The translations under genes were made by a program, and so were the position numbers. Of a stretch of DNA of 35,662 nucleotides, positions 6,102 through 32,926 are shown in pieces. The stretch's first letter is position 1. The number at the start of each line of letters is the position of its first letter. This DNA comes from an uncultured Candidatus Bathyarchaeia archaeon. GTDB taxonomy: Archaea > Thermoproteota > Bathyarchaeia > Bathyarchaeales > DTEX01. Below the pieces are notes generated by a model, which did no database searches, was not told the origin of the DNA, and saw only the letters and a list, made by a program, of their open reading frames with translations. Location: contig CAYNMB010000001.1 in NCBI GenBank assembly GCA_964398235.1, forward strand, positions 1 through 35,662, read 5' to 3'.

Positions 6102-7130
6102 ATGAGGGTTGGAGTTTTAACTGGCGGCGGCGACGCTCCTGGACTTAACGCAGCCATAAGGGCGATTGTGAAAAAATGTGAAAAGTATGGCTTTGAGGTT
6201 TTAGGAATTAAACGTGGTTGGGCTGGAATGCTTGAAGGCGACGCCATGCCACTAAATTATGAAAGCATTAAAGATATCATTTCAAAAAGCGGAACCATGC
6301 TTAAAACTTCTAGGACTAATCCCCTAAAAGATCCGGAGGGAGTGAAGAAAGTAGCCGAAAACTTCAAGAAGCTTGGTCTTGATGCATTGATAGCGATTGG
6401 TGGAGATGATACGCTAAGCGTCGCTAAAGCTGTAAGCGATGCTGGATTAAATGTTGTTGGCGTTCCAAAAACAATAGACTATGACGTTCCGGGAACAGAG
6501 TTTACAATAGGCTTTGACACAGCGGTTAATGAAGCCATGCATGTGATAGAGAACATTAAAGCCACCGCGGCTTCCCATGAGAGAGTCTTCACCGTTGAAA
6601 TTATGGGCAGACATGCGGGATGGATAGCCCTATACTCCGGACTTGCGGCTGGGGCAGATCTGATACTAATTCCCGAGGAACCATTTAGCGTAGAGGATGT
6701 AGTAAACTTTGTGAAAAAGAAAATAGAAAGCGGGCAAAAATCCGTAGTTATCGTTGTAGCCGAAGGAGCGTTAATTAAAGGCTACAAAGGTCCAATAACC
6801 AAGGACGTAAAAGTTGATCAATTTGGCCATGTATCTCTGGGAGGAATAGGCGCCTTCCTAGCTAAGGAAATTGAGAAAGCATTGGGGGTTGAAACTAGGT
6901 CTGTTGCGCCAGCTCATACCATAAGAGGCGGTTCGCCGACAGCCCTAGACAGAATAATATCTACTAGGCTTGGTTTAGCGGCTGTTGATTTGGTTAAAGA
7001 AGGAAAATTTGGCATGATGGTTGCTCTCAGAGCTGGCGAAATCGTTGCAGTTCCGCTTTCAGAAGTTACTGGCAAAACAAAACAAGTGGATCTTCAACTC
7101 TATGAGGAAGCTAAAATATTCTTTGAATAA
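6102..7130 (+). CDS. pfkA: 6-phosphofructokinase, PfkA family, with signature residues of the PPi-dependent type
   Basis: Motifs seen are MRVGVLTGGGDAPGLNAAIRAIV, IGGDDT, VGVPKTIDYD, MGRHAGW and HTIRGG. Asp in GGDD(T) and Lys in PKTID occupy the positions equivalent to E. coli Gly104 and Gly124. This combination is associated with pyrophosphate rather than ATP use. Confidence 0.85.
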   Translation: MRVGVLTGGGDAPGLNAAIRAIVKKCEKYGFEVLGIKRGWAGMLEGDAMPLNYESIKDIISKSGTMLKTSRTNPLKDPEGVKKVAENFKKLGLDALIAIGGDDTLSVAKAVSDAGLNVVGVPKTIDYDVPGTEFTIGFDTAVNEAMHVIENIKATAASHERVFTVEIMGRHAGWIALYSGLAAGADLILIPEEPFSVEDVVNFVKKKIESGQKSVVIVVAEGALIKGYKGPITKDVKVDQFGHVSLGGIGAFLAKEIEKALGVETRSVAPAHTIRGGSPTALDRIISTRLGLAAVDLVKEGKFGMMVALRAGEIVAVPLSEVTGKTKQVDLQLYEEAKIFFE

Positions 7131-7163: not shown

Positions 7164-8135
7164 TTAAATTCTAATGCTTAAACCTTGGCTTTCAAGAAAC
7201 TTGTTCAATTCATCCCTATAGGGTAGAGCTGTTATTGCACCATGCTTTGTAACCACTAGAGCGCCAACAGCATTAGCTACCGTGGCGCACTTCTCTAAAT
7301 CCCAGCCCCTTAATAGCCCAATAAGTAAACCCGCATTCCATCCATCTCCTGCACCAGTAGTATCTACAGCTTTCACCTTAAAAGCCGGAGTATAGATGCT
7401 TTTTCCATCCCTAGTTTTAATTAAAGAACCCATTTCACCAAGTTTTATTCCAACAATTTCAACCCCATATTTTAGAGCCCTATCGGCAGCTCTCTCCGGT
7501 TCTTTAGTTTCAAAAATGAATTCAGCCTCCTCACGTGAAAACATCGCTATCTCTGATAGCCTAAGAATTCTCCTGTAAACTCTCTTTATCGCATTTTCAG
7601 ATCTCCAAACATCAAGTCTCAACGTTGGATCAAAGGAAACTTTAACCCCGCTTTCTTTGGCATGCATTATGGCTGAAAGAATAGCCTTCCTCGAAGGATT
7701 GCTTGACAAAGCGAAGCCTGAGACATGTAATATCTTTGCTGAAGAAATATATTCGTAATCAACATCTTCCGGCAACATTACATCGACGGATGTTCCCCTA
7801 ACCCATGGAGCCCTATAAAATATGAATGTCCGCTCCCCAGTTTCAGGCTCATTAACAACAAACGCTAAAGTCGTCCTTACATTCTCTTTGATTTTCACAT
7901 GTGATACATCAACTCCATTCCTCTTCAGCTCATTCAGCAGAAATTGGCCGAATGGATCATTACCAACAACCGTTATAGCTCCAGCGGAAGCACCTAGTCT
8001 AGCAGCTCCAACTATAGTGTTCATTGGCGCTCCACCAAAACATTTTCTGAAGGTGGAAGCTTCTAGATAAGAAACCGGTTCCGTGGATATGAAGTCTATT
8101 AACACTTCCCCCATGCCAATAATCTCAGGCTTCAT
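7164..8135 (-). CDS. PfkB/ribokinase-family sugar kinase (substrate unknown)
   Basis: The 323-aa product has the N-terminal GEVLIDF..GGAPMN pattern and the C-terminal DTTGAGDGWNAG anion-hole/ATP motif typical of PfkB carbohydrate kinases. Confidence 0.8.
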   Translation of the reverse strand: MKPEIIGMGEVLIDFISTEPVSYLEASTFRKCFGGAPMNTIVGAARLGASAGAITVVGNDPFGQFLLNELKRNGVDVSHVKIKENVRTTLAFVVNEPETGERTFIFYRAPWVRGTSVDVMLPEDVDYEYISSAKILHVSGFALSSNPSRKAILSAIMHAKESGVKVSFDPTLRLDVWRSENAIKRVYRRILRLSEIAMFSREEAEFIFETKEPERAADRALKYGVEIVGIKLGEMGSLIKTRDGKSIYTPAFKVKAVDTTGAGDGWNAGLLIGLLRGWDLEKCATVANAVGALVVTKHGAITALPYRDELNKFLESQGLSIRI

Positions 8136-11013: not shown

Positions 11014-11361
11014 ATGGAATTCGATCGAGAGCAATTTAAGAAGATGTTTCCCAACCTAGCTAGAGAAATCGAAAATGGAGGATGTAAAATAGCGATAACC
11101 TCAGTGAGATTGAATCCAGAGGAAGGTGAGAAGGCAGCGTCAAAGAAATTTGAGGGATATAACCCGGATGTCATAGATTTTCTAAGAAGATGCGATACCC
11201 ATGAACAAGCTGAGGAAATAATAGCCTACCTAGAGAGAAGAGGGGAGATAAATTCGCAATATGCCGCAAATTTAAGGAAACAGTTAAAAGAAAAAGGCGT
11301 TCGAAGCTTCGGTCCAAAAAAGGAGGACGCATACTATCTGAGGCAAGCTGGCTTTAAGTAG
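11014..11361 (+). CDS. Conserved archaeal hypothetical protein (DUF2095-like)
   Basis: The 115-aa product shows the pattern FPNLAREI ... YNPDVIDFLRRC.THEQAEEIIAYLERRGEI ... FGPKKEDAYY. I recognise this from memory as the DUF2095 family. Confidence 0.45.
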   Translation: MEFDREQFKKMFPNLAREIENGGCKIAITSVRLNPEEGEKAASKKFEGYNPDVIDFLRRCDTHEQAEEIIAYLERRGEINSQYAANLRKQLKEKGVRSFGPKKEDAYYLRQAGFK

Positions 11362-11506
11362 ACAGAAACTAGGGGAATGAAATAAAGCTTCTTCGGATTT
11401 AGTGTATTCGTTGTTTTTGCTTCGAAGGTTATATATGCTTTAAATGATTTATTATTAGAAATATCCTAAATCTAAGCTCAAAAATTGGTTTGCGGGGTTA
11501 AAGCCC

Positions 11507-13249
11507 TTGAAGAAAAAAGCAACACCCTTAATATTATGCCTATTAACAGTTTTTCAAATATTAATTGTAGGCTCTTCACTTTCAACTCTTGCGGAAACCA
11601 AAGACAATATCTCCATAATCTCCATACCATTTAACATTGTTGTTGCAGTAAAAATGTCTTCTATAGAGAGAAGTATCGATTTTATTAGTGGCGGATACTT
11701 AATTATTACGGACACTTTCATTTTATCCCCCACTAATGCTTCAGGTTTTTCTATAAGCAATTATATTGTTGGATTACCGAAAAACTGCACCGATAATCTG
11801 GTTTATTATTCAGCTAGCGATCCTAAGGGATCTCTAAAAATAGATCCCATCGAAAATTGGGATGGAAACTTTCTCTGGTTAAACATATCATTTCCAGATC
11901 CAATTGAAATAGGGGATAATGAGACCTACAATTTTACAGTAACCTACGTGTTTTTTGATTTAATCATGGAGGAAAGTGAAAATGTTTTTAACGCCAGTTT
12001 TCCGCTCTATCCAGCTTTAATGAATGATGCTAAATACTGTAATGTAACCGTAAAACTTCCCGTTAAAGCCACTTCCCACTCCCAGAACCTCCTAAATAAA
12101 ACCAGCGATCAAACAGTATTTTATAATTTGACAAGTCCGCTTCCCGCTTTTTCAAATGTTTTTTCATGGGTGGAGTTTGAAACAACCACTTTCAAGCTAT
12201 TTGAGCTTAAAGAGGTAAAAAGAGAAATTAATATTGATCCTCTAGGAAAGATCTTTGTGACAGACTTCTATCACATAACTCATATGACGAATGTCCATGT
12301 GATTACGTTCATTTTACCCCAAGGCGCATCTGACATCTCTGTTTATGATGCTTACGGCACGTATGAGGGAAGCGAGCTAAGGATAATTCCAGAAGAAGAA
12401 TATACTGAAGTGAGCGTTTATCCTAGGGATCAGTTACAGGCAAGTAAAAAGGCGAAGATTGCAATATCCTATACCTTGCCCTTCTGGAAATACGTCGTTA
12501 GGAATGATTGGCAAGATTATGTTTTGCAGATAAACATTACAAAATCGGACATCAAAATCATAGATGATCCGGAGGCATGGATTATTAGAAAAATTGAAGT
12601 GTCTGTATCCTTGCCTGAAGGAGCAATTCCAGAGGGAAATCTTAAACAAGAATGGTCAAATGTAACAAGGTTTCAAGAATTAAAATTTTCCCTAAAATAC
12701 AAATATGCGTTTCTCTGGGCGGCCCTTAAGCCAACCTTATGGACTGGCTTAATCATAGGCTTAGCTGGCTTAATCTTTTTCTTTATTAAAATCTCCGGGA
12801 AACCAGTAAAACCAGCTGCAATTGCTGTTTCTACTGAAACTTTAAGGAAATTTGTTGAAACATTTGAGGAGAGAATCCAAGTTATGTCCGAGATAGAATC
12901 CCTAGAACAACTATCTAGGCGTAGGAAAATATCTAGGCGCCGCTATAAATTTCAAAGAAGAGCTTTAGAGAATCGTCTTTCAATTCTCCAAGAGAATCTT
13001 TCTGATCTTATGTCTGAAATAAAATCTTTTGGAGGCAGATACGCCGACATGATGAAACAATTAGAAGCCGCAACTCTCACTCTCGAAGCCATTAATAGAA
13101 ATATAATGGAGGTTGAAGCCAGATATCGACGTGGAGAAATATCCGCAAAAACTCGCAGAAAACTATTAAGCGAATATGCACAGAAAAAGGAAGATGCCGA
13201 AAGAACAATGGATGAAATACTCTTAAGGATTAGAGAAGAGCTTGCGTAA
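11507..13249 (+). CDS. Type I membrane glycoprotein, ribophorin I (OST1)-like ectodomain, single TM and basic cytosolic coiled coil
   Basis: The start is TTG. It has a signal peptide (KKKATPLILCLLTVFQILIVGSSLSTLAE) and about a dozen N-x-S/T sequons before the TM helix (LWTGLIIGLAGLIFFFIKI). A roughly 150-aa Arg/Lys/Glu-rich helical tail follows. The blocks IERSIDF..., ILPQGASDISVYDAYG and IEVSVSLPEGA resemble conserved ribophorin I blocks. Confidence 0.6.
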   Translation: MKKKATPLILCLLTVFQILIVGSSLSTLAETKDNISIISIPFNIVVAVKMSSIERSIDFISGGYLIITDTFILSPTNASGFSISNYIVGLPKNCTDNLVYYSASDPKGSLKIDPIENWDGNFLWLNISFPDPIEIGDNETYNFTVTYVFFDLIMEESENVFNASFPLYPALMNDAKYCNVTVKLPVKATSHSQNLLNKTSDQTVFYNLTSPLPAFSNVFSWVEFETTTFKLFELKEVKREINIDPLGKIFVTDFYHITHMTNVHVITFILPQGASDISVYDAYGTYEGSELRIIPEEEYTEVSVYPRDQLQASKKAKIAISYTLPFWKYVVRNDWQDYVLQINITKSDIKIIDDPEAWIIRKIEVSVSLPEGAIPEGNLKQEWSNVTRFQELKFSLKYKYAFLWAALKPTLWTGLIIGLAGLIFFFIKISGKPVKPAAIAVSTETLRKFVETFEERIQVMSEIESLEQLSRRRKISRRRYKFQRRALENRLSILQENLSDLMSEIKSFGGRYADMMKQLEAATLTLEAINRNIMEVEARYRRGEISAKTRRKLLSEYAQKKEDAERTMDEILLRIREELA

Positions 13250-13366: not shown

Positions 13367-13552
13367 ATGGTGAAGATTGAAGTAGATCCTGAAAAATGCA
13401 CTGGCTGTGGAACATGCGTTGAAGTCTGTCCAGTAGGAGTTTATGAAATTAAGGATGATAAGTCGGTTCCAGTTAATGTTGATGAATGTCTCCTTTGTAG
13501 AGCTTGTGAAACCCAATGTCCTAGCAATGCCATAACAATTGAAGAAGAGTAG
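13367..13552 (+). CDS. 2x[4Fe-4S] ferredoxin
   Basis: The 61-aa product carries two CxxCxxCxxxCP motifs: CTGCGTCVEVCP and CLLCRACETQCP. Confidence 0.9.
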   Translation: MVKIEVDPEKCTGCGTCVEVCPVGVYEIKDDKSVPVNVDECLLCRACETQCPSNAITIEEE

Positions 13553-13678
13553 CCAGCTAGAACACGAAACTTTCCCGGCATCCTAGCAACAAATGATGCG
13601 TCTAAAGCTGCTTTTTAGTGAACCCCCTCCATTTTCCTTGCTTTTTCTAACCTCGTCCATATTACGGCAATTAAGTCA

Positions 13679-23093: not shown

Positions 23094-25373
23094 TTGCGCT
23101 TAAAAATAATTGTTTCCGGCATAGTTCAGGGAGTTGGTTTTCGTCCATTTGTCTATCGTATAGCGATTAAAAACCGTCTAAATGGATATGTGCGAAATAG
23201 AGGAGATTCATGTGTTGAAATATTTGTTGAAGGAGAAGAATTAAACATAAAACGTTTTTTGGATGATCTCGTTAAAAAGAAGCCGCCGCTAGCCCGTATA
23301 CATGAAATAATCTCCACTCCAATCGGAGTGTCAAGTCAATATGAAGGCTTTACCATACGTAAAAGTTCTACTCAATCGGAGGTTTCCGGATCTATTATAC
23401 CGCCTGATGTAGCCATATGTGATGAATGTTTAAAAGAGATGCGTGATCCAGCTAACCCAAGATATGACTACTTCTTTATTACATGTGTAAACTGCGGTCC
23501 AAGATACACGATTATTGAGAGCGTCCCCTACGATAGAGAAAACACAACCATGCGAGACTTCCCAATGTGTGATTTTTGCAGATCGGAGTATGAAGATCCT
23601 TTGAACAGGAGATTTCATGCCCAAACCATCGCATGTCCAAAGTGTGGTCCAAAAATTTATCTCCTAACTAACGACGGAGAGCTTGTCAAGCATAAGGATC
23701 CTATAAGGGAATCTGGTAAATTGATTTCTGAGGGATACATTGTTGCCATCAAAGGTTACGGCGGCTTCCATATAGCGGCATCGACGCTTCTAGATGAACC
23801 GCTAATAAAATTGAGGAAGGTTAAACATAGGAGACAAAAACCTTTCGCCATAATGGCTAGAGATTTAAACACCGTGAAAACTTTTGCTGAAGTAAGTTCT
23901 TGGGAGGCTAGTGTATTAACCTCTTACACTCGACCAATAGTCCTTTTAAAGAAAAGTGAAAATTATTACTTGTCGGATTTAATCGCCCCAGGACTCCATA
24001 ATATTGGTGTCATGCTCCCTTACACTGGCTTACACTACATGTTGTTTGATGAAGTTTCAGATCCAGCATTTGTTATGACAAGTGCTAATCCGCCAAATCA
24101 ACCCATAGTAAAAGATGATGAGGAAGCATTTAGAAAATTATCTGAAGTTGCCGATTATTTTCTGATTCATAATAGGCGAATAGCCCATAGATGCGATGAC
24201 TCAGTTCTACGCATGCATGGGAATAAAATAGTGTTTATAAGGAGGTCTAGGGGATATGCTCCAGAACCCATATTATTGAAGCATGAAGTTAAACACTGTA
24301 CGCTTGGTTTGGGTGGTGAAAAAAATAACACATCATGCTTAATTCTTGGCGGAAAGGCTTTTATGTCGCAACATATTGGCGATGTAGAGAATCTAGAAAC
24401 CCTAGAATTTCTTAAAAATGCTTCTAAGGGGCTTATAGAGCTGACGAATAGTAAGGTTGAAGCAGTTGCATGCGATTTGCATCCAAAATTTGCATCAACC
24501 TTCTTAGCTGAAAAATTGTCTGAGGAAAACGGATGGGAGATTATTCGCGTTCAACATCATTTTGCTCATGTAGCGGCGCTTATGGCTGAGCATGGTGTTA
24601 GTGAAATTATTGGCGTATGTTGCGATGGCTACGGATATGGTTTAGATGGAAAAGCTTGGGGAGGGGAAATAATATTAGGCATAGCTTCAAGCAAGTCGAT
24701 AGAATTCAAACGTTTAGGACACTTGCAGGAGCAACCCATGGTTGGCGGCGACTTAGCAACACTTTATCCACTTAGAATGGCATGTGGAATACTTTACGGG
24801 CATATAGATGTGGAAAATTGGCTCATGAAAAATGCTTCTCATCTCCCTCATGGGGAAACGGAAGTTCAAGTAATCCTAAGTCAGCTTAAAAGAGGAGTCA
24901 GCATTAAAACAACAAGCTGCGGAAGAATATTGGACGCGGTCTCAGCAATTTTAGGCGTATGCTATGAAAGAACATATGAAGGTGAACCAGCTATGAAACT
25001 TGAATCCACAGCCATTGGTGGAAAAAGAGTTTTAAAAAAGAAACCTGTGATCCGCGGTAACACTTTGAATACTACGGAAATTGTAACCCTCATATTCGAG
25101 GAAAGAGAGAAGCTCCCAAAACGCGACTTAGCTTTCTCAATCCACGCCTACCTAGCTGAGGGGTTGGCGCAATTAGCCATAGAAAAGGCTTTGGAGAATG
25201 GAATTAAGACAATAGGTTTTTCAGGCGGGGTTGCATGTAATCAAATAATCGCTCAAATGATGCGAAAAATTGTTGAATCGAATGGCTTAACTTTTCTTAC
25301 TCATGAAGCCTTGCCGCCGGGTGATGGCGGCATTTCGCTTGGACAAGCCTTTACAGCCAGCCTTCTTCAATAA
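23094..25373 (+). CDS. hypF: [NiFe]-hydrogenase maturation carbamoyltransferase HypF
   Basis: The product has an acylphosphatase domain (VSGIVQGVGFRPFVYRIA) and two zinc-finger pairs (CDEC...CVNCGPRYT, CDFC...CPKCGP). It also has a YrdC-like and a Kae1-like domain. The start is TTG with GAGGG upstream. Confidence 0.93.
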   Translation: MRLKIIVSGIVQGVGFRPFVYRIAIKNRLNGYVRNRGDSCVEIFVEGEELNIKRFLDDLVKKKPPLARIHEIISTPIGVSSQYEGFTIRKSSTQSEVSGSIIPPDVAICDECLKEMRDPANPRYDYFFITCVNCGPRYTIIESVPYDRENTTMRDFPMCDFCRSEYEDPLNRRFHAQTIACPKCGPKIYLLTNDGELVKHKDPIRESGKLISEGYIVAIKGYGGFHIAASTLLDEPLIKLRKVKHRRQKPFAIMARDLNTVKTFAEVSSWEASVLTSYTRPIVLLKKSENYYLSDLIAPGLHNIGVMLPYTGLHYMLFDEVSDPAFVMTSANPPNQPIVKDDEEAFRKLSEVADYFLIHNRRIAHRCDDSVLRMHGNKIVFIRRSRGYAPEPILLKHEVKHCTLGLGGEKNNTSCLILGGKAFMSQHIGDVENLETLEFLKNASKGLIELTNSKVEAVACDLHPKFASTFLAEKLSEENGWEIIRVQHHFAHVAALMAEHGVSEIIGVCCDGYGYGLDGKAWGGEIILGIASSKSIEFKRLGHLQEQPMVGGDLATLYPLRMACGILYGHIDVENWLMKNASHLPHGETEVQVILSQLKRGVSIKTTSCGRILDAVSAILGVCYERTYEGEPAMKLESTAIGGKRVLKKKPVIRGNTLNTTEIVTLIFEEREKLPKRDLAFSIHAYLAEGLAQLAIEKALENGIKTIGFSGGVACNQIIAQMMRKIVESNGLTFLTHEALPPGDGGISLGQAFTASLLQ

Positions 25374-25419
25374 TTGCAATAAGCTTATTTATTTGAGCGT
25401 CTTTAAAGGTTCGATGAAA

Positions 25420-25650
25420 ATGTGCTTAGCAGTTCCAGCTAAGGTTTTAAAGATTAATGGCGATTTAGCTAAGGTTGATTTTGGCGGTGTTGTGAGAGAG
25501 GTTAACATCATGCTTGTGAATGCCAAAGTTGGCGATTACGTTTTAGTACACGCTGGATATGCCATACAGGTTCTGGATGAAAGAAAGGCTGAGGAAACCC
25601 TAGCAATCTGGAGAGAAATTATGGGGCTAAAAGATGTTGATGAAGCATGA
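25420..25650 (+). CDS. hypC: [NiFe]-hydrogenase maturation chaperone HypC
   Basis: The N-terminus MCLAVPAKVLKI carries the invariant Cys2 of HypC/HupF, and the product is 76 aa. The ORF-track start at 25303 overlaps the hypF 3' end and would bury Cys2. Confidence 0.9.
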   Translation: MCLAVPAKVLKINGDLAKVDFGGVVREVNIMLVNAKVGDYVLVHAGYAIQVLDERKAEETLAIWREIMGLKDVDEA

Positions 25651-26738
25651 AGTGGGAAAGAGGATTTAAGGATCCAATTTTAGCAAAGAAGATAGTGGAA
25701 AAAATTCATGAAATAACACCGAAAAATGATCATGTTAAAATATGTCATATTTGCGGGACTCATGAATGGGTTATTTCGCATAATGGAATAAGAAGCTTGT
25801 TACCGGAAAATGTTGAGGTTATAGCTGGACCTGGTTGTCCAGTCTGTATTGTTCCAGCGGCAGAAATAGATGAAGCGGTTCAGCTAGCGTTAGGCGGGGT
25901 TTCTGTAACATGTTTTGGCGATGTACTAAGAGTTCCAGGCTCAGACATGTCGCTTTTAGAGGCTAAGGCTAAGGGCGCTGATGTCAGAGTTGTCTATAGT
26001 GTTATGGACGCGGTTAAGATGGCCGAGAAAAATCCGGAGAAGGACTTCGTCTTTTTTGCAATAGGATTTGAAACAACAGCGCCATCAACAGCAGCTGAAA
26101 TTGTGAGGAAACCGCCAAGGAACCTGAGTTTTTTAGTTTCACATAGGTTGATTCCCCCAGCTATGGAATTTATGATTGGACTAGGCGATTTACAAATTGA
26201 CGCTTTTATTGCCCCAGGTCATGTAAGCACGATAATAGGTTTAGAGCCATATGTAATATTTCCAAAGGTTTATCGTATGCCAACAATTATTGCGGGCTTT
26301 GAACCAATAGACATTTTAATCGCTATTTATATGGCTCTCAGACAAATTGTAAAACGCACAGCCATACTAGAGAACGAATATAAGCGTGCGGTAACATGGG
26401 AGGGAAATGTGAAAGCTAAAACGTTAATCAATAAGGTTTTTAATGTTGTTGGCGCTCCATGGCGTGGACTAGGTAGGTTGCCTAACTCTGCCTTAAAAAT
26501 TAAAGATGTTTTTCGTGATTATGATGCCAGAGAAAAATATGGTGTTAAAATCAAGCGTGGTAGAGATATTCCACCCGGCTGTCAGTGTCATCTCGTCATC
26601 ATTGGGAAAATTAAACCCACCGAATGTCCCCTCTTTATGAGAGAATGTACTCCTCAAAAACCTTTGGGTGCATGCATGGTTAGTAGTGAGGGAACATGTC
26701 GAATATGGTCGCGCGTCATCTCAAATCCTCCACTTTAG
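25647..26738 (+). CDS. hypD: [NiFe]-hydrogenase maturation protein HypD
   Basis: HypD motifs are present: CHICGTHEW, GPGCPVCI, GFETTAPS and the C-terminal Cys cluster PGCQCH...C. There is an ATGA overlap with hypC. Confidence 0.93.
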   Translation: MKWERGFKDPILAKKIVEKIHEITPKNDHVKICHICGTHEWVISHNGIRSLLPENVEVIAGPGCPVCIVPAAEIDEAVQLALGGVSVTCFGDVLRVPGSDMSLLEAKAKGADVRVVYSVMDAVKMAEKNPEKDFVFFAIGFETTAPSTAAEIVRKPPRNLSFLVSHRLIPPAMEFMIGLGDLQIDAFIAPGHVSTIIGLEPYVIFPKVYRMPTIIAGFEPIDILIAIYMALRQIVKRTAILENEYKRAVTWEGNVKAKTLINKVFNVVGAPWRGLGRLPNSALKIKDVFRDYDAREKYGVKIKRGRDIPPGCQCHLVIIGKIKPTECPLFMRECTPQKPLGACMVSSEGTCRIWSRVISNPPL

Positions 26739-30988: not shown

Positions 30989-32926
30989 ATGAAGACTTCC
31001 GAAGTAATCTTCCAGCCTGAAGGAAAACGAGTGACTGTTCCTTTTGGAAGTACTATTTTGGAAGCCGCAAAGTCTGCTGGCGTAGATTTAATATCAATTT
31101 GCGGCGGTAGAGGAATTTGCGGAAAATGTAAAGTTATAGTTGAGGGGGGAGAAGTAAGCCCATTAACTCAAATTGAGAGAAAACTGCTTTCAGAGCTTGA
31201 GAGATCTATGGGCTATAGACTTGCATGTCAAACATCAATCCTCAGTCAAGTTCTTGTCATTAAAATCCCGGAGGAGAGTAGAACCGGTAAACAAAGGCTT
31301 CAAGTAGAGGGTATAGAGACGCCGGTGAAAATTGAACCGTTGGTCAAGAAATATTTTGTTAAGATAAAGAAACCATCGCTTCAGGATATACGATCTGATT
31401 TTGACAGATTGGTGGAAGAATTAAAGAGGACGTACGGACTAGAAGGATTAAAGATCACATATGATGTTCTCCGAAGATTGCCACTCATCCTTAGGGAAAG
31501 CGATTGGGAAGTCACTGTTGTCATATGGAACGAAGACACTATAATAGATTTAGAGATGGGAAACTCGGTTAACAGAATTTTTGGATATGCAGTTGATATA
31601 GGTACAACTAAAATTGCTGGTTACTTATTGGACTTGAATTCCGGAAAGGTTTTGGCAGTTGATTCTCTAATGAATCCTCAAATACCCTATGGTGAAGATG
31701 TTATTTCAAGAATAACCTACGTATCCAACAATCCCGATGGATTAAATGAGCTTCAACGAACCGTCGTTGACGGAGTAAACCAGATTCTTAAAACGCTTCT
31801 TGAAAAAACAGGTGTGAATCAAAGAGAAGTTTATGAAATGACTGTTGTTGGAAACACTGCTATGCATCATTTATTTTTGGGGATAAACCCAAAGTATGTG
31901 GCCTTAGCGCCTTATCCGCCGGTCATAAAAAATGGGGTGAACGTTAAAGCAAGAGAAATCGGAGCAGATATTAATCCAAACGGTAATGTGCATGTTCTTC
32001 CTGTGATAGGCGGCTTTGTTGGAGCTGATGCTGTTGCAGTAATTTTGGCTACTGAAATCTATAGAAGAAAGGAGCTCTGTATGGCTATAGATATCGGAAC
32101 AAATACTGAAGTTGTTTTAGGTAATAAAAATGAGATTTTAGCCTCTTCATGTGCCTCTGGACCCGCCTTCGAAGGAGCGCATATAAAATATGGTATGAGA
32201 GCCGCAACTGGAGCCATTGAGAGGATAAAGATAGACCCCTATACGCTTGAAGTTCAGTATGAGACTATAGATAATGTTAAACCACGCGGCATATGTGGTT
32301 CAGCAATGGTTGATGTTGTAGCTGAAATGTTAAAGTCTGGTATAATAGATGTTTCCGGAAGATTTAACAAGAATATTTCTTCTCCAAGGCTTCGTTTTAC
32401 TAAAAGTGGAGCTGAATTTGTTTTAGCATGGAAAAATGAAACTGCAATCAATGATGATATAGTTGTAACCCAAAGGGATATAAGAGAGATTCAATTAGCT
32501 AAGGCTGCCATACATACCGGGTGTGCCTTGCTGATGAAAAAAATGGGTGTAACGGAACAGGACATAGATTTAATGTTTATAGCTGGAGCCTTTGGTTCAT
32601 ATATAAATCCAGAGAATGCGCGAATCATAGGAATGTATCCTGAGATACCGCTAAATAGGGTGCGTATCGTTGGTAATGCAGCTGGAACTGGAGCAAGGAT
32701 GGCTTTAATCTCAAAATCATTCAGGGAGAAAGCTGAGAAAATAGCGAGGAAAGTCAACTATATTGAGCTTGGGGCTGAACAGGATTTTCAAGCAGAATTC
32801 TTTAATTCTCAATTTATACCCTATGCTGATTTAACTAGGTATCCAGAAACTATTAAGTTGTTAAAAAGATTAGGTAAGTATCCGAAGAAGCTTCCACCCG
32901 TCTTCATGTCTAATAAGAATCGCTAA
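30989..32926 (+). CDS. [2Fe-2S] ferredoxin / ASKHA-ATPase (DUF4445) fusion, RACo-like reductive activator of corrinoid proteins
   Basis: The N-terminal plant-type ferredoxin motif is CGGRGICGKCKV...C. The C-terminal actin/HSP70-like ATPase blocks are AVDIGTTK, AIDIGTNTE and FIAGAFG. Confidence 0.8.
   Translation: MKTSEVIFQPEGKRVTVPFGSTILEAAKSAGVDLISICGGRGICGKCKVIVEGGEVSPLTQIERKLLSELERSMGYRLACQTSILSQVLVIKIPEESRTGKQRLQVEGIETPVKIEPLVKKYFVKIKKPSLQDIRSDFDRLVEELKRTYGLEGLKITYDVLRRLPLILRESDWEVTVVIWNEDTIIDLEMGNSVNRIFGYAVDIGTTKIAGYLLDLNSGKVLAVDSLMNPQIPYGEDVISRITYVSNNPDGLNELQRTVVDGVNQILKTLLEKTGVNQREVYEMTVVGNTAMHHLFLGINPKYVALAPYPPVIKNGVNVKAREIGADINPNGNVHVLPVIGGFVGADAVAVILATEIYRRKELCMAIDIGTNTEVVLGNKNEILASSCASGPAFEGAHIKYGMRAATGAIERIKIDPYTLEVQYETIDNVKPRGICGSAMVDVVAEMLKSGIIDVSGRFNKNISSPRLRFTKSGAEFVLAWKNETAINDDIVVTQRDIREIQLAKAAIHTGCALLMKKMGVTEQDIDLMFIAGAFGSYINPENARIIGMYPEIPLNRVRIVGNAAGTGARMALISKSFREKAEKIARKVNYIELGAEQDFQAEFFNSQFIPYADLTRYPETIKLLKRLGKYPKKLPPVFMSNKNR

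Follow-up and report, generated by a model that had tools for sequence, protein, structure and literature searches.

A bathyarchaeial member of the ribophorin I/OST1 family with a cytosolic four-helix bundle homologous to the ribosome-binding domain of an Asgard OST1

Does an archaeon from outside the Asgard lineage encode a complete ribophorin I (OST1), the oligosaccharyltransferase subunit by which ribosomes are docked in animals, and what might such a protein do there? The question is raised by a 580-amino-acid (aa) protein encoded on a 35,662-nucleotide stretch of archaeal DNA (assembly GCA_964398235.1, contig CAYNMB010000001.1, positions 1 to 35,662; this whole stretch is hereafter the window), for which an initial annotation had proposed a ribophorin I-like membrane glycoprotein with a long basic cytosolic coiled coil. 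The six-frame list of open reading frames (ORFs) contains a 580-aa ORF at exactly 11507..13249 on the forward strand, the coordinates given in that annotation, and its TTG start is supported by homologs whose alignments begin at residues 1-3. Sequence and fold both make this protein almost certainly a member of the Ribophorin I/OST1 family. Further, we consider it probable that it is the bathyarchaeial ortholog of OST1 and serves as a non-catalytic accessory subunit of the N-oligosaccharyltransferase (OST)/translocon machinery.

The family assignment is carried by several lines of sequence evidence. The protein matches the Pfam profile Ribophorin_I (PF04597) with 51 bits against a gathering score of 25 (E = 1.6e-13), the best stretch pairing residues 263-373 with profile positions 257-357, and a precomputed match to the same profile is found in 23 of 26 close homologs. 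A profile built from these 26 homologs (profile A1), which was also the basis of the structure model described below, recovers human RPN1 from the sequences of the PDB (6s7o_E, E = 2.8e-19, profile 78-540 against RPN1 64-563) in an alignment that runs from the ectodomain through the transmembrane helix into the beginning of the tail; for the ectodomain, no other non-trivial match was obtained among PDB sequences. The same profile recovers plant ribophorin I proteins (E = 7e-19 to 1.8e-14), and further word-indexed homolog searches contributed no more than three plant proteins and six that were Loki-type or divergent. Even a 118-aa fragment of the window protein alone, searched with phmmer, finds human RPN1 282-378 (E = 0.0018), and the core motifs of lumenal domain 2 (ILPxxAxDxxxxDxxG and LPEGA) are present opposite this region. 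Of the three ectodomain motif blocks that the initial annotation had lined up with eukaryotic sequences, the second and third hold when aligned residue by residue with human RPN1 (FILPQGASDISVYDAYG opposite TILPAAAQDVYYRDEIG, and VSVSLPEGA opposite VKIILPEGA), but the first, IERSIDF, lacks statistical support. N-terminal motifs of the kind quoted do exist (KRTVDL in human, KRTIDV in yeast); a profile of the N-terminal module alone (profile A2, aa 46-240) has no match to PDB sequences at E<=10, and when it is aligned by hhalign with the human RPN1 N-terminus, IERSIDF falls opposite TRVIEV (the strand that opens RPN1 domain 2) at a non-significant probability of 0.2.

The predicted fold points the same way. 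An AlphaFold2 model computed on profile A1 (mean pLDDT 81.9) has strands over residues 50-399 followed by a transmembrane helix at 402-430, and in a Foldseek search of the PDB with this model, RPN1/Ost1 chains take all of the first eight places (E = 3.5e-30 to 1.9e-18); their identity as subunit 1 was confirmed by sequence. These comprise the human chains 8b6l_O (3.5e-30), 6s7o_E, 8pn9_E and 6s7t_E (TM score 0.70), from OST-A and OST-B, and the yeast chains 8agb_E, 6ezn_A, 7oci_A and 6c26_1 (1.9e-18). The ninth match is an integrin at 3e-6, leaving a 12-log gap to generic beta-sandwich proteins, and TMt values of 0.62-0.70 to the ectodomain-plus-transmembrane chains of Ost1/RPN1 indicate the two-module, beta-sandwich-like fold of the family. 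The fold unrelated to ribophorin I that the initial annotation had named as a ground for rejection was not seen, and the profile match that it had proposed as a check lies above the Pfam gathering score. With the exception of the N-terminal strand motif, every feature of PF04597 and of the tail-bearing OST1 type that could be tested was found in the protein.

Its topology is that of a type I membrane protein, as in ribophorin I, judging by hydropathy, sequon distribution, the positive-inside rule and the two model helices (6-22 and 402-430). The signal-peptide-like N-terminus and the one transmembrane helix of the initial annotation were both recovered. The N-terminus has a short basic n-region (MKKK), a hydrophobic core (residues 5-28) and a candidate cleavage site at STLA|E, whose small residues fit the (-3,-1) rule; cleavage itself is inferred, and the model shows a helix over residues 6-22 followed by a disordered linker of low pLDDT. 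Besides this N-terminal stretch there is a single further hydrophobic segment (409-431), aligned with the RPN1 transmembrane region in the profile alignment, and the KISGKPVKP that follows it fits the positive-inside rule. The ectodomain of about 370-390 aa (residues 30-405) holds 12 N-x-S/T sequons, as first annotated, out of 13 in the whole protein and a single one in the tail; 3.7 +/- 1.7 are expected in residues 30-405, and none of 2000 composition-preserving shuffles reached 12. Across the family, the closer (bathyarchaeial-type) homologs carry 9-14 sequons per protein and almost none in the last 150 residues. This confinement of the enrichment to the ectodomain is compatible with an N-out/C-in orientation.

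The ectodomain is divided into two beta-rich modules (Table 1). The first holds nine of the 12 ectodomain sequons, among them the near-invariant N142-F-T, N179-V-T and N197-K-T, and lies within the structural match to Ost1/RPN1, yet it is undetectable by sequence alone; the second is the sequence-conserved Ribophorin_I core. The opening strands of the two modules (aa 50-400; window 11654-12706) are alike (SSIERSIDFISGGYLIITDTF against KEVKREINIDPLGKIFVTDFY), and a strand pattern seems to recur at the start of both (IERSIDF..GGY and KREINID.LGKI), hinting that they might have arisen by internal duplication.

The cytosolic tail (residues 432-580, 149 aa) provides a link to a characterized archaeal protein. 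It is rich in charged residues (R 14%, K 7%, E 14%, net charge +7) and is basic, helical and of the roughly 150 aa initially proposed; in the model, however, it folds into a compact four-helix bundle and not into a long coiled coil. In Foldseek, the tail model superposes on PDB 8WHN with a TM score of 0.84 and a root-mean-square deviation of 2.4 A over 142 columns. The tail of the single protein already matches 8whn_A by sequence (E = 1.6e-4), and a profile restricted to bathyarchaeial tails does so at E = 6.5e-13, as the sole PDB match at E<=0.01. A still lower value for 8WHN (E = 1.5e-23) was discounted, as the tail profile that gave it contained a Lokiarchaeon sequence that inflated the score; other PDB matches of the tail profile beyond 8WHN (e.g., tropomyosin) are coiled-coil noise, and sub-threshold NCBIfam matches of the tail to SMC and CdvA, being of the coiled-coil type, were rejected as compositional. 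The 8WHN structure shows the cytosolic part of OST1 from a Lokiarchaeon, "Ca. Prometheoarchaeum syntrophicum" MK-D1 (Carilo et al., J Biol Chem 2024, PMC11417166). This domain has basic surface patches and pulls down human 80S ribosomes in vitro, an activity that the MK-D1 ectodomain does not display; direct ribosome binding has been shown only for the MK-D1 and human cytosolic domains (PMC11417166). The window tail is homologous to this MK-D1 domain that binds ribosomes in vitro, and the protein thereby belongs with the tail-bearing (metazoan/Asgard-type) OST1 proteins, whose C-terminal four-helix bundle is that of RPN1 and MK-D1 OST1. The likeness of the tail to the ribosome-contacting domain of metazoan RPN1, which had been noted from topology, is likewise supported. 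Within the family, conservation is highest in the tail, whose mean column identity is 0.64-0.68 versus 0.59-0.61 for the ectodomain; the tail includes 22 columns with at least 80% Lys/Arg as well as a conserved segment, K-I-S-R-R-x-Y-R-L-Q-R-R (474-485), that lies between helices 1 and 2.

The host of this gene belongs to Bathyarchaeia (TACK/Thermoproteota) and not to the Asgard archaea, from which, according to the initial annotation, ribophorin I is mainly reported among archaea: the closest named relatives of the protein come from Candidatus Bathyarchaeia, all 13 related loci in species-representative genomes lie in Bathyarchaeia/Bathyarchaeota metagenome-assembled genomes, and the neighboring genes are 66-88% identical to those of the closer bathyarchaeial loci and stand in the same order. 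An exhaustive HMMER search over 1.84 billion representatives recovered 1065 family clusters at E<=1e-3, 630 at E<=1e-10 and 323 at E<=1e-30; most of the best 150 of the 1065 are 560-620 aa long and are matched as far as the tail's C-terminal end. The sampled clusters comprise five from Bathyarchaeota/Bathyarchaeia/Thermoproteota, one from Odinarchaeia and one from Promethearchaeota. The closest relatives (P0002 and P0003) are 95-98% identical to the window protein, and one member from Ca. Bathyarchaeota archaeon B26-1 (KYH42048.1) is already annotated as "Ribophorin 1 superfamily protein", most others being labeled "hypothetical protein". Several members (P0053, P0062, P0087, P0160 and P0171) are shorter (~400-450 aa) or have a different N-terminal part; some match only profile positions ~230-588 (module 2, transmembrane helix and tail) and others have the tail with a shorter ectodomain. 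Some of these may be gene fragments and others genuine single-module OST1 variants.

Conserved synteny together with more than 100 diverged clusters indicates that the gene has been maintained, be it through vertical descent or transfer. A quick tree of Bathyarchaeia, Asgard and plant sequences, based on capped distances, was poorly supported and did not settle whether the bathyarchaeial proteins fall inside or outside Asgard diversity; between-group p-distances were 0.80-0.82, and the "bathy-type" bin included Odinarchaeia. We put forward only tentatively, as less likely than not, the view that a complete OST1 with a docking bundle is ancient and vertically inherited in Bathyarchaeia and predates the TACK/Asgard divergence, instead of having been invented in Asgard archaea or recently acquired by transfer. 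Were this the case, archaea would have had a ribosome-coupled multi-subunit N-glycosylation/translocon assembly long before the Asgard-eukaryote lineage, and ribophorin I would cease to be an Asgard-restricted "eukaryotic signature protein".

How might the protein act? We posit that it would be exported through SecYE-beta with removal of the signal peptide, and that its ectodomain would be heavily N-glycosylated on the 12 sequons. The transmembrane helix and the membrane-proximal ectodomain would associate with the catalytic AglB/STT3, whose gene would lie outside the window, and the conserved Lys/Arg surface of the cytosolic bundle would contact large-subunit rRNA at the translocon. AglB would thus be held beside the SecY exit and nascent chains would be glycosylated co-translocationally, as by mammalian OST-A (8B6L). 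Such an AglB-coupled, ribosome-docking mechanism is, in our estimate, slightly favored for this organism.

Several observations weigh against it. There is no gene for AglB/STT3, OST3/6, Sec61-beta or a glycosyltransferase in the 35.6-kb window, nor is any of these present within +/-8 kb of 13 bathyarchaeial homologs, so that a role in OST has no support from genomic context here, and the multi-subunit OST initially proposed is backed by no STT3/AglB or OST3/6 gene in the window. AglB is nearly universal in Archaea, for which reason its missing linkage is itself weak evidence. To our knowledge, no physical complex of OST1 with AglB has been demonstrated in any archaeon. Among archaeal proteins, ribosome binding has been shown only for the MK-D1 tail, which is ~20% identical to that of the window protein, and only with human ribosomes; in turn, the tail of human RPN1 was not detected when the tail profile was searched against PDB sequences. 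Nor are eL28 and rRNA expansion segments, as far as we know, general features of archaeal ribosomes, and hence the docking site would have to differ from the mammalian one. It is these elements that RPN1 reportedly contacts on the mammalian ribosome, as Braunger et al. 2018 are said to have described.

The main rival is a reading in which the protein is a true OST1 homolog that acts as a ribosome/translocon receptor or organizer at SecYE-beta without an AglB complex, the link to glycosylation having arisen later in the Asgard/eukaryote line. It would account for the tail being the most conserved part, with its 22 conserved basic columns, and for the location of the gene in a housekeeping block that begins with ribosomal protein S3Ae and has no glycosylation genes nearby; the Lokiarchaeon homolog, unlike the window gene, adjoins glycosylation genes and OST3/6, and ribosome binding is the only biochemical activity shown for an archaeal OST1 (PMC11417166). 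However, conservation of the ectodomain is good as well (column identity 0.59-0.61), and it retains the core motifs of Ribophorin_I, which in the matched eukaryotic OST structures lie in the lumenal part of the complex, and the linkage to S3Ae is non-specific, being part of a 13-gene syntenic block. On balance we think this reading unlikely, though one to be taken seriously. A further possibility is that a true OST1 homolog uses its ectodomain mainly as a substrate-selective chaperone/holdase or envelope scaffold, the tail being just an anchor or regulatory module. The heavy glycan load predicted from the sequon count and the fast divergence of the ectodomain between species (31-58% identity versus 42-88% for the neighboring genes), as expected of a surface-exposed, substrate-contacting protein, are in its favor, but it leaves unexplained why the cytosolic bundle, homologous to a demonstrated ribosome-binding domain, should be the most conserved part; we regard it as improbable.

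Both of these readings retain the family assignment. The alternative that dispenses with it takes the protein for a lineage-specific surface glycoprotein, the fallback of the initial annotation, or for an adhesin, built of generic beta-sandwich domains on a coiled-coil anchor, and treats its ribophorin likeness as coincidence. Generic beta-sandwich proteins (integrins, adhesins) do occur lower in the Foldseek list, from E~3e-6, and sequence comparison links the N-terminal module, taken by itself, to no PDB chain. Against this stand the Pfam match above the curated cut-off, RPN1 as the only non-trivial PDB sequence match for the ectodomain, the exclusive occupation of the top eight structural matches by Ost1/RPN1 with a 12-log gap behind them, and the specific match of the tail to 8WHN. 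Together, the PF04597, RPN1 profile, Foldseek and 8WHN results effectively refute this alternative, to which we assign hardly any likelihood.

The archaeal OST1 family and its ribosome-binding tail are already published, and the system is not new in kind. An Asgard Ost1 was reported in 2017, according to the passages of PMC10307638 and PMC8993221 in which that report is cited, and major surveys, such as that of Eme et al. 2023 (PMC10307638), present Ost1 in prokaryotes as a trait of Asgard archaea. One sentence of Carilo et al. 2024 (PMC11417166) mentions the occurrence of OST1 in "TACK and Asgard archaea". Two 2024 papers conflict over MK-D1 itself: Ost1 is absent from P. syntrophicum according to PMC11284389 and was expressed and crystallized in PMC11417166. 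A complete, conserved and syntenic OST1 with a predicted docking bundle across Bathyarchaeia sits awkwardly with descriptions of the protein as an Asgard feature (PMC10307638) and backs the statement of Carilo et al. 2024 on its occurrence in TACK (PMC11417166). With it comes a second and independent lineage of archaea for asking if the tail docks on archaeal ribosomes and if OST1 pairs with AglB, and it usefully informs the timing of translocon/OST complexity.

The gene lies in a conserved bathyarchaeial block with the order SerRS(-), S3Ae(+), nucleotidyltransferase(+), DUF2095(+), OST1(+), a small ferredoxin(+), further genes, AsnB-like(-) and adenylosuccinate lyase (ADSL)(+). Across bathyarchaeial loci, OST1 evolves much faster than its neighbors (31-58% versus 42-88% identity), as expected for an exposed glycoprotein. 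The DUF2095 gene stands directly upstream on the same strand in all ten bathyarchaeial loci with upstream DNA (L001-L009 and L011), usually preceded by the nucleotidyltransferase and S3Ae, and the linkage is lost at the locus of the most divergent homolog (L015); since the whole 13-gene block is syntenic, the adjacency is possibly non-specific. A search of DUF2095 against PDB sequences found no relative. The 145-bp spacer that separates it from OST1 is AT-rich with TATA-like boxes and might, from these boxes, be the OST1 gene's own promoter. Downstream, a 2x[4Fe-4S] ferredoxin ORF, below the length limit of the ORF list, starts 119 bp behind OST1 on the same strand, with no evident functional connection. 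A homolog of it (58-61 aa, 63-80% identical) is close behind OST1 in ten of the 12 loci where it was found, making it the most persistently linked neighbor, also at loci of a homolog of 26% identity (P0025). A different setting is seen at the Lokiarchaeon CR_4 homolog (L014, MBAA01000164.1, 1944-14842), which sits in a translocon/glycosylation island: a divergent Sec61-beta gene directly precedes it, and the island further holds two genes for GT4 glycosyltransferases, one for an epimerase, one of the Glycos_transf_4 (Alg7/AglH) type and a weak match to OST3/OST6.

The remainder of the window is archaeal housekeeping DNA (Table 1). Scans for tRNA genes and Rfam families found nothing in its 35.6 kb, and a scan for bacterial-type (sigma-70) promoters and terminators was uninformative, being inapplicable to an archaeon. 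Two further features deserve mention. A PF00365-type phosphofructokinase adjoins a PfkB-family sugar kinase in this archaeal genome, and both are conserved at 66-87% identity wherever they occur among the related bathyarchaeial loci. In keeping with the hydrogen/Wood-Ljungdahl-type metabolism proposed for Bathyarchaeia, the window also encodes a HypF-HypC-HypD cluster for hydrogenase maturation and a reductive activator of corrinoid proteins of the RACo type.

Table 1. Features of the OST1 locus and of the surrounding window (window coordinates; aa, residues of the encoded protein).
Feature	Coordinates	Strand	Details
OST1/ribophorin I homolog, complete coding sequence	11507..13249	+	TTG start, 580 aa, stop codon included; ORF call
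Signal-peptide-like N-terminus	11507..11593	+	aa 1-29: MKKK n-region, hydrophobic core 5-28, STLA|E; hydropathy
Ectodomain beta-rich module 1	11654..12211	+	aa 50-235; AlphaFold strands, pLDDT ~85-93
Ectodomain beta-rich module 2	12212..12706	+	aa 236-400; sequence-conserved Ribophorin_I core with ILPQGASDISVYDAYG and SLPEGA
Single transmembrane helix	12707..12799	+	aa 401-431, hydrophobic core 409-431; model helix 402-430
Cytosolic four-helix bundle	12833..13246	+	aa 443-580; helices 443-471, 477-506, 510-541, 547-579 (model)
DUF2095 gene	11014-11361	+	115 aa, PF09868 E=5.7e-32; directly upstream of OST1
Upstream spacer	11362..11506	+	145 bp, AT-rich, intergenic; TATA-like boxes TTATATAT, CTTTAAAT, TTTATTAT; read from sequence
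2x[4Fe-4S] ferredoxin ORF	13368-13553	+	61 aa, MVKIEVDPEKCTGCGTC...CRACETQCP...; GAGGTGG ribosome-binding site; below ORF-list length
PF00365-type phosphofructokinase	6102-7130	+	E=6.7e-105
PfkB-family sugar kinase	7164-8135	-	
Hydrogenase maturation cluster HypF-HypC-HypD	23094-26738	+	
RACo-type reductive activator of corrinoid proteins	30989-32926	+	
Window genes, first part			OB-fold/DUF2240 protein, DUF2070, CTP synthase, PFK, PfkB, SerRS, ribosomal protein S3Ae
Window genes, second part			nucleotidyltransferase, DUF2095, OST1, AsnB-like protein, adenylosuccinate lyase, DUF72, MiaB-like protein
Window genes, third part			FtsZ, MetRS, HypF/C/D, RACo, others

Among known systems, OST1 of MK-D1 (WP_147663064.1, 607 aa) is similar to the window protein (580 aa) in overall size and architecture: both have a signal peptide, an ectodomain of ~390 aa, one transmembrane helix and a basic cytosolic four-helix bundle of ~150 aa. 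The tails are, however, only ~20% identical, and the window protein comes from a bathyarchaeial (TACK) rather than an Asgard host. The related Lokiarchaeon CR_4 protein is ~22-23% identical over the whole protein and differs in sequon number (5 in the entire protein versus 12 in the window ectodomain) and in gene setting (the Sec61-beta/glycosyltransferase/OST3-6 island versus the housekeeping block of Bathyarchaeia). Human RPN1 (6S7O chain E, 8B6L, 6S7T) shares with the window protein the PF04597 domain, the blocks ILP..A.D....D..G and (I/S)LPEGA, and a cytosolic four-helix bundle, and gives a full-length structural match (E=3.5e-30, ~594 columns; TM score 0.70 to the ectodomain-plus-transmembrane chain 6s7t_E), although identity is 12-14% and the similarity of the tails is not detected by sequence alone. 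RPN1, whose partner subunits are TMEM258/Ost5, OST4 and STT3A, is a protein of the endoplasmic reticulum, whereas the cell membrane is the expected location of the window protein. In human RPN1 a single sequon is used, and the number carried by the window protein is far higher. Yeast Ost1p (476 aa; 6EZN chain A, 6C26 chain 1, 8AGB, 7OCI) shares the two-module lumenal beta fold and the one transmembrane helix (Foldseek E=1.8e-20 to 1.9e-18, TM scores 0.62-0.65), is not found by profile A1 at E<=1, and has no cytosolic four-helix bundle. Closest in kind are the family members represented by KYH42048.1, with a cluster representative (P0037) that shares 33% identity with the window protein; none of them differs from it in kind.

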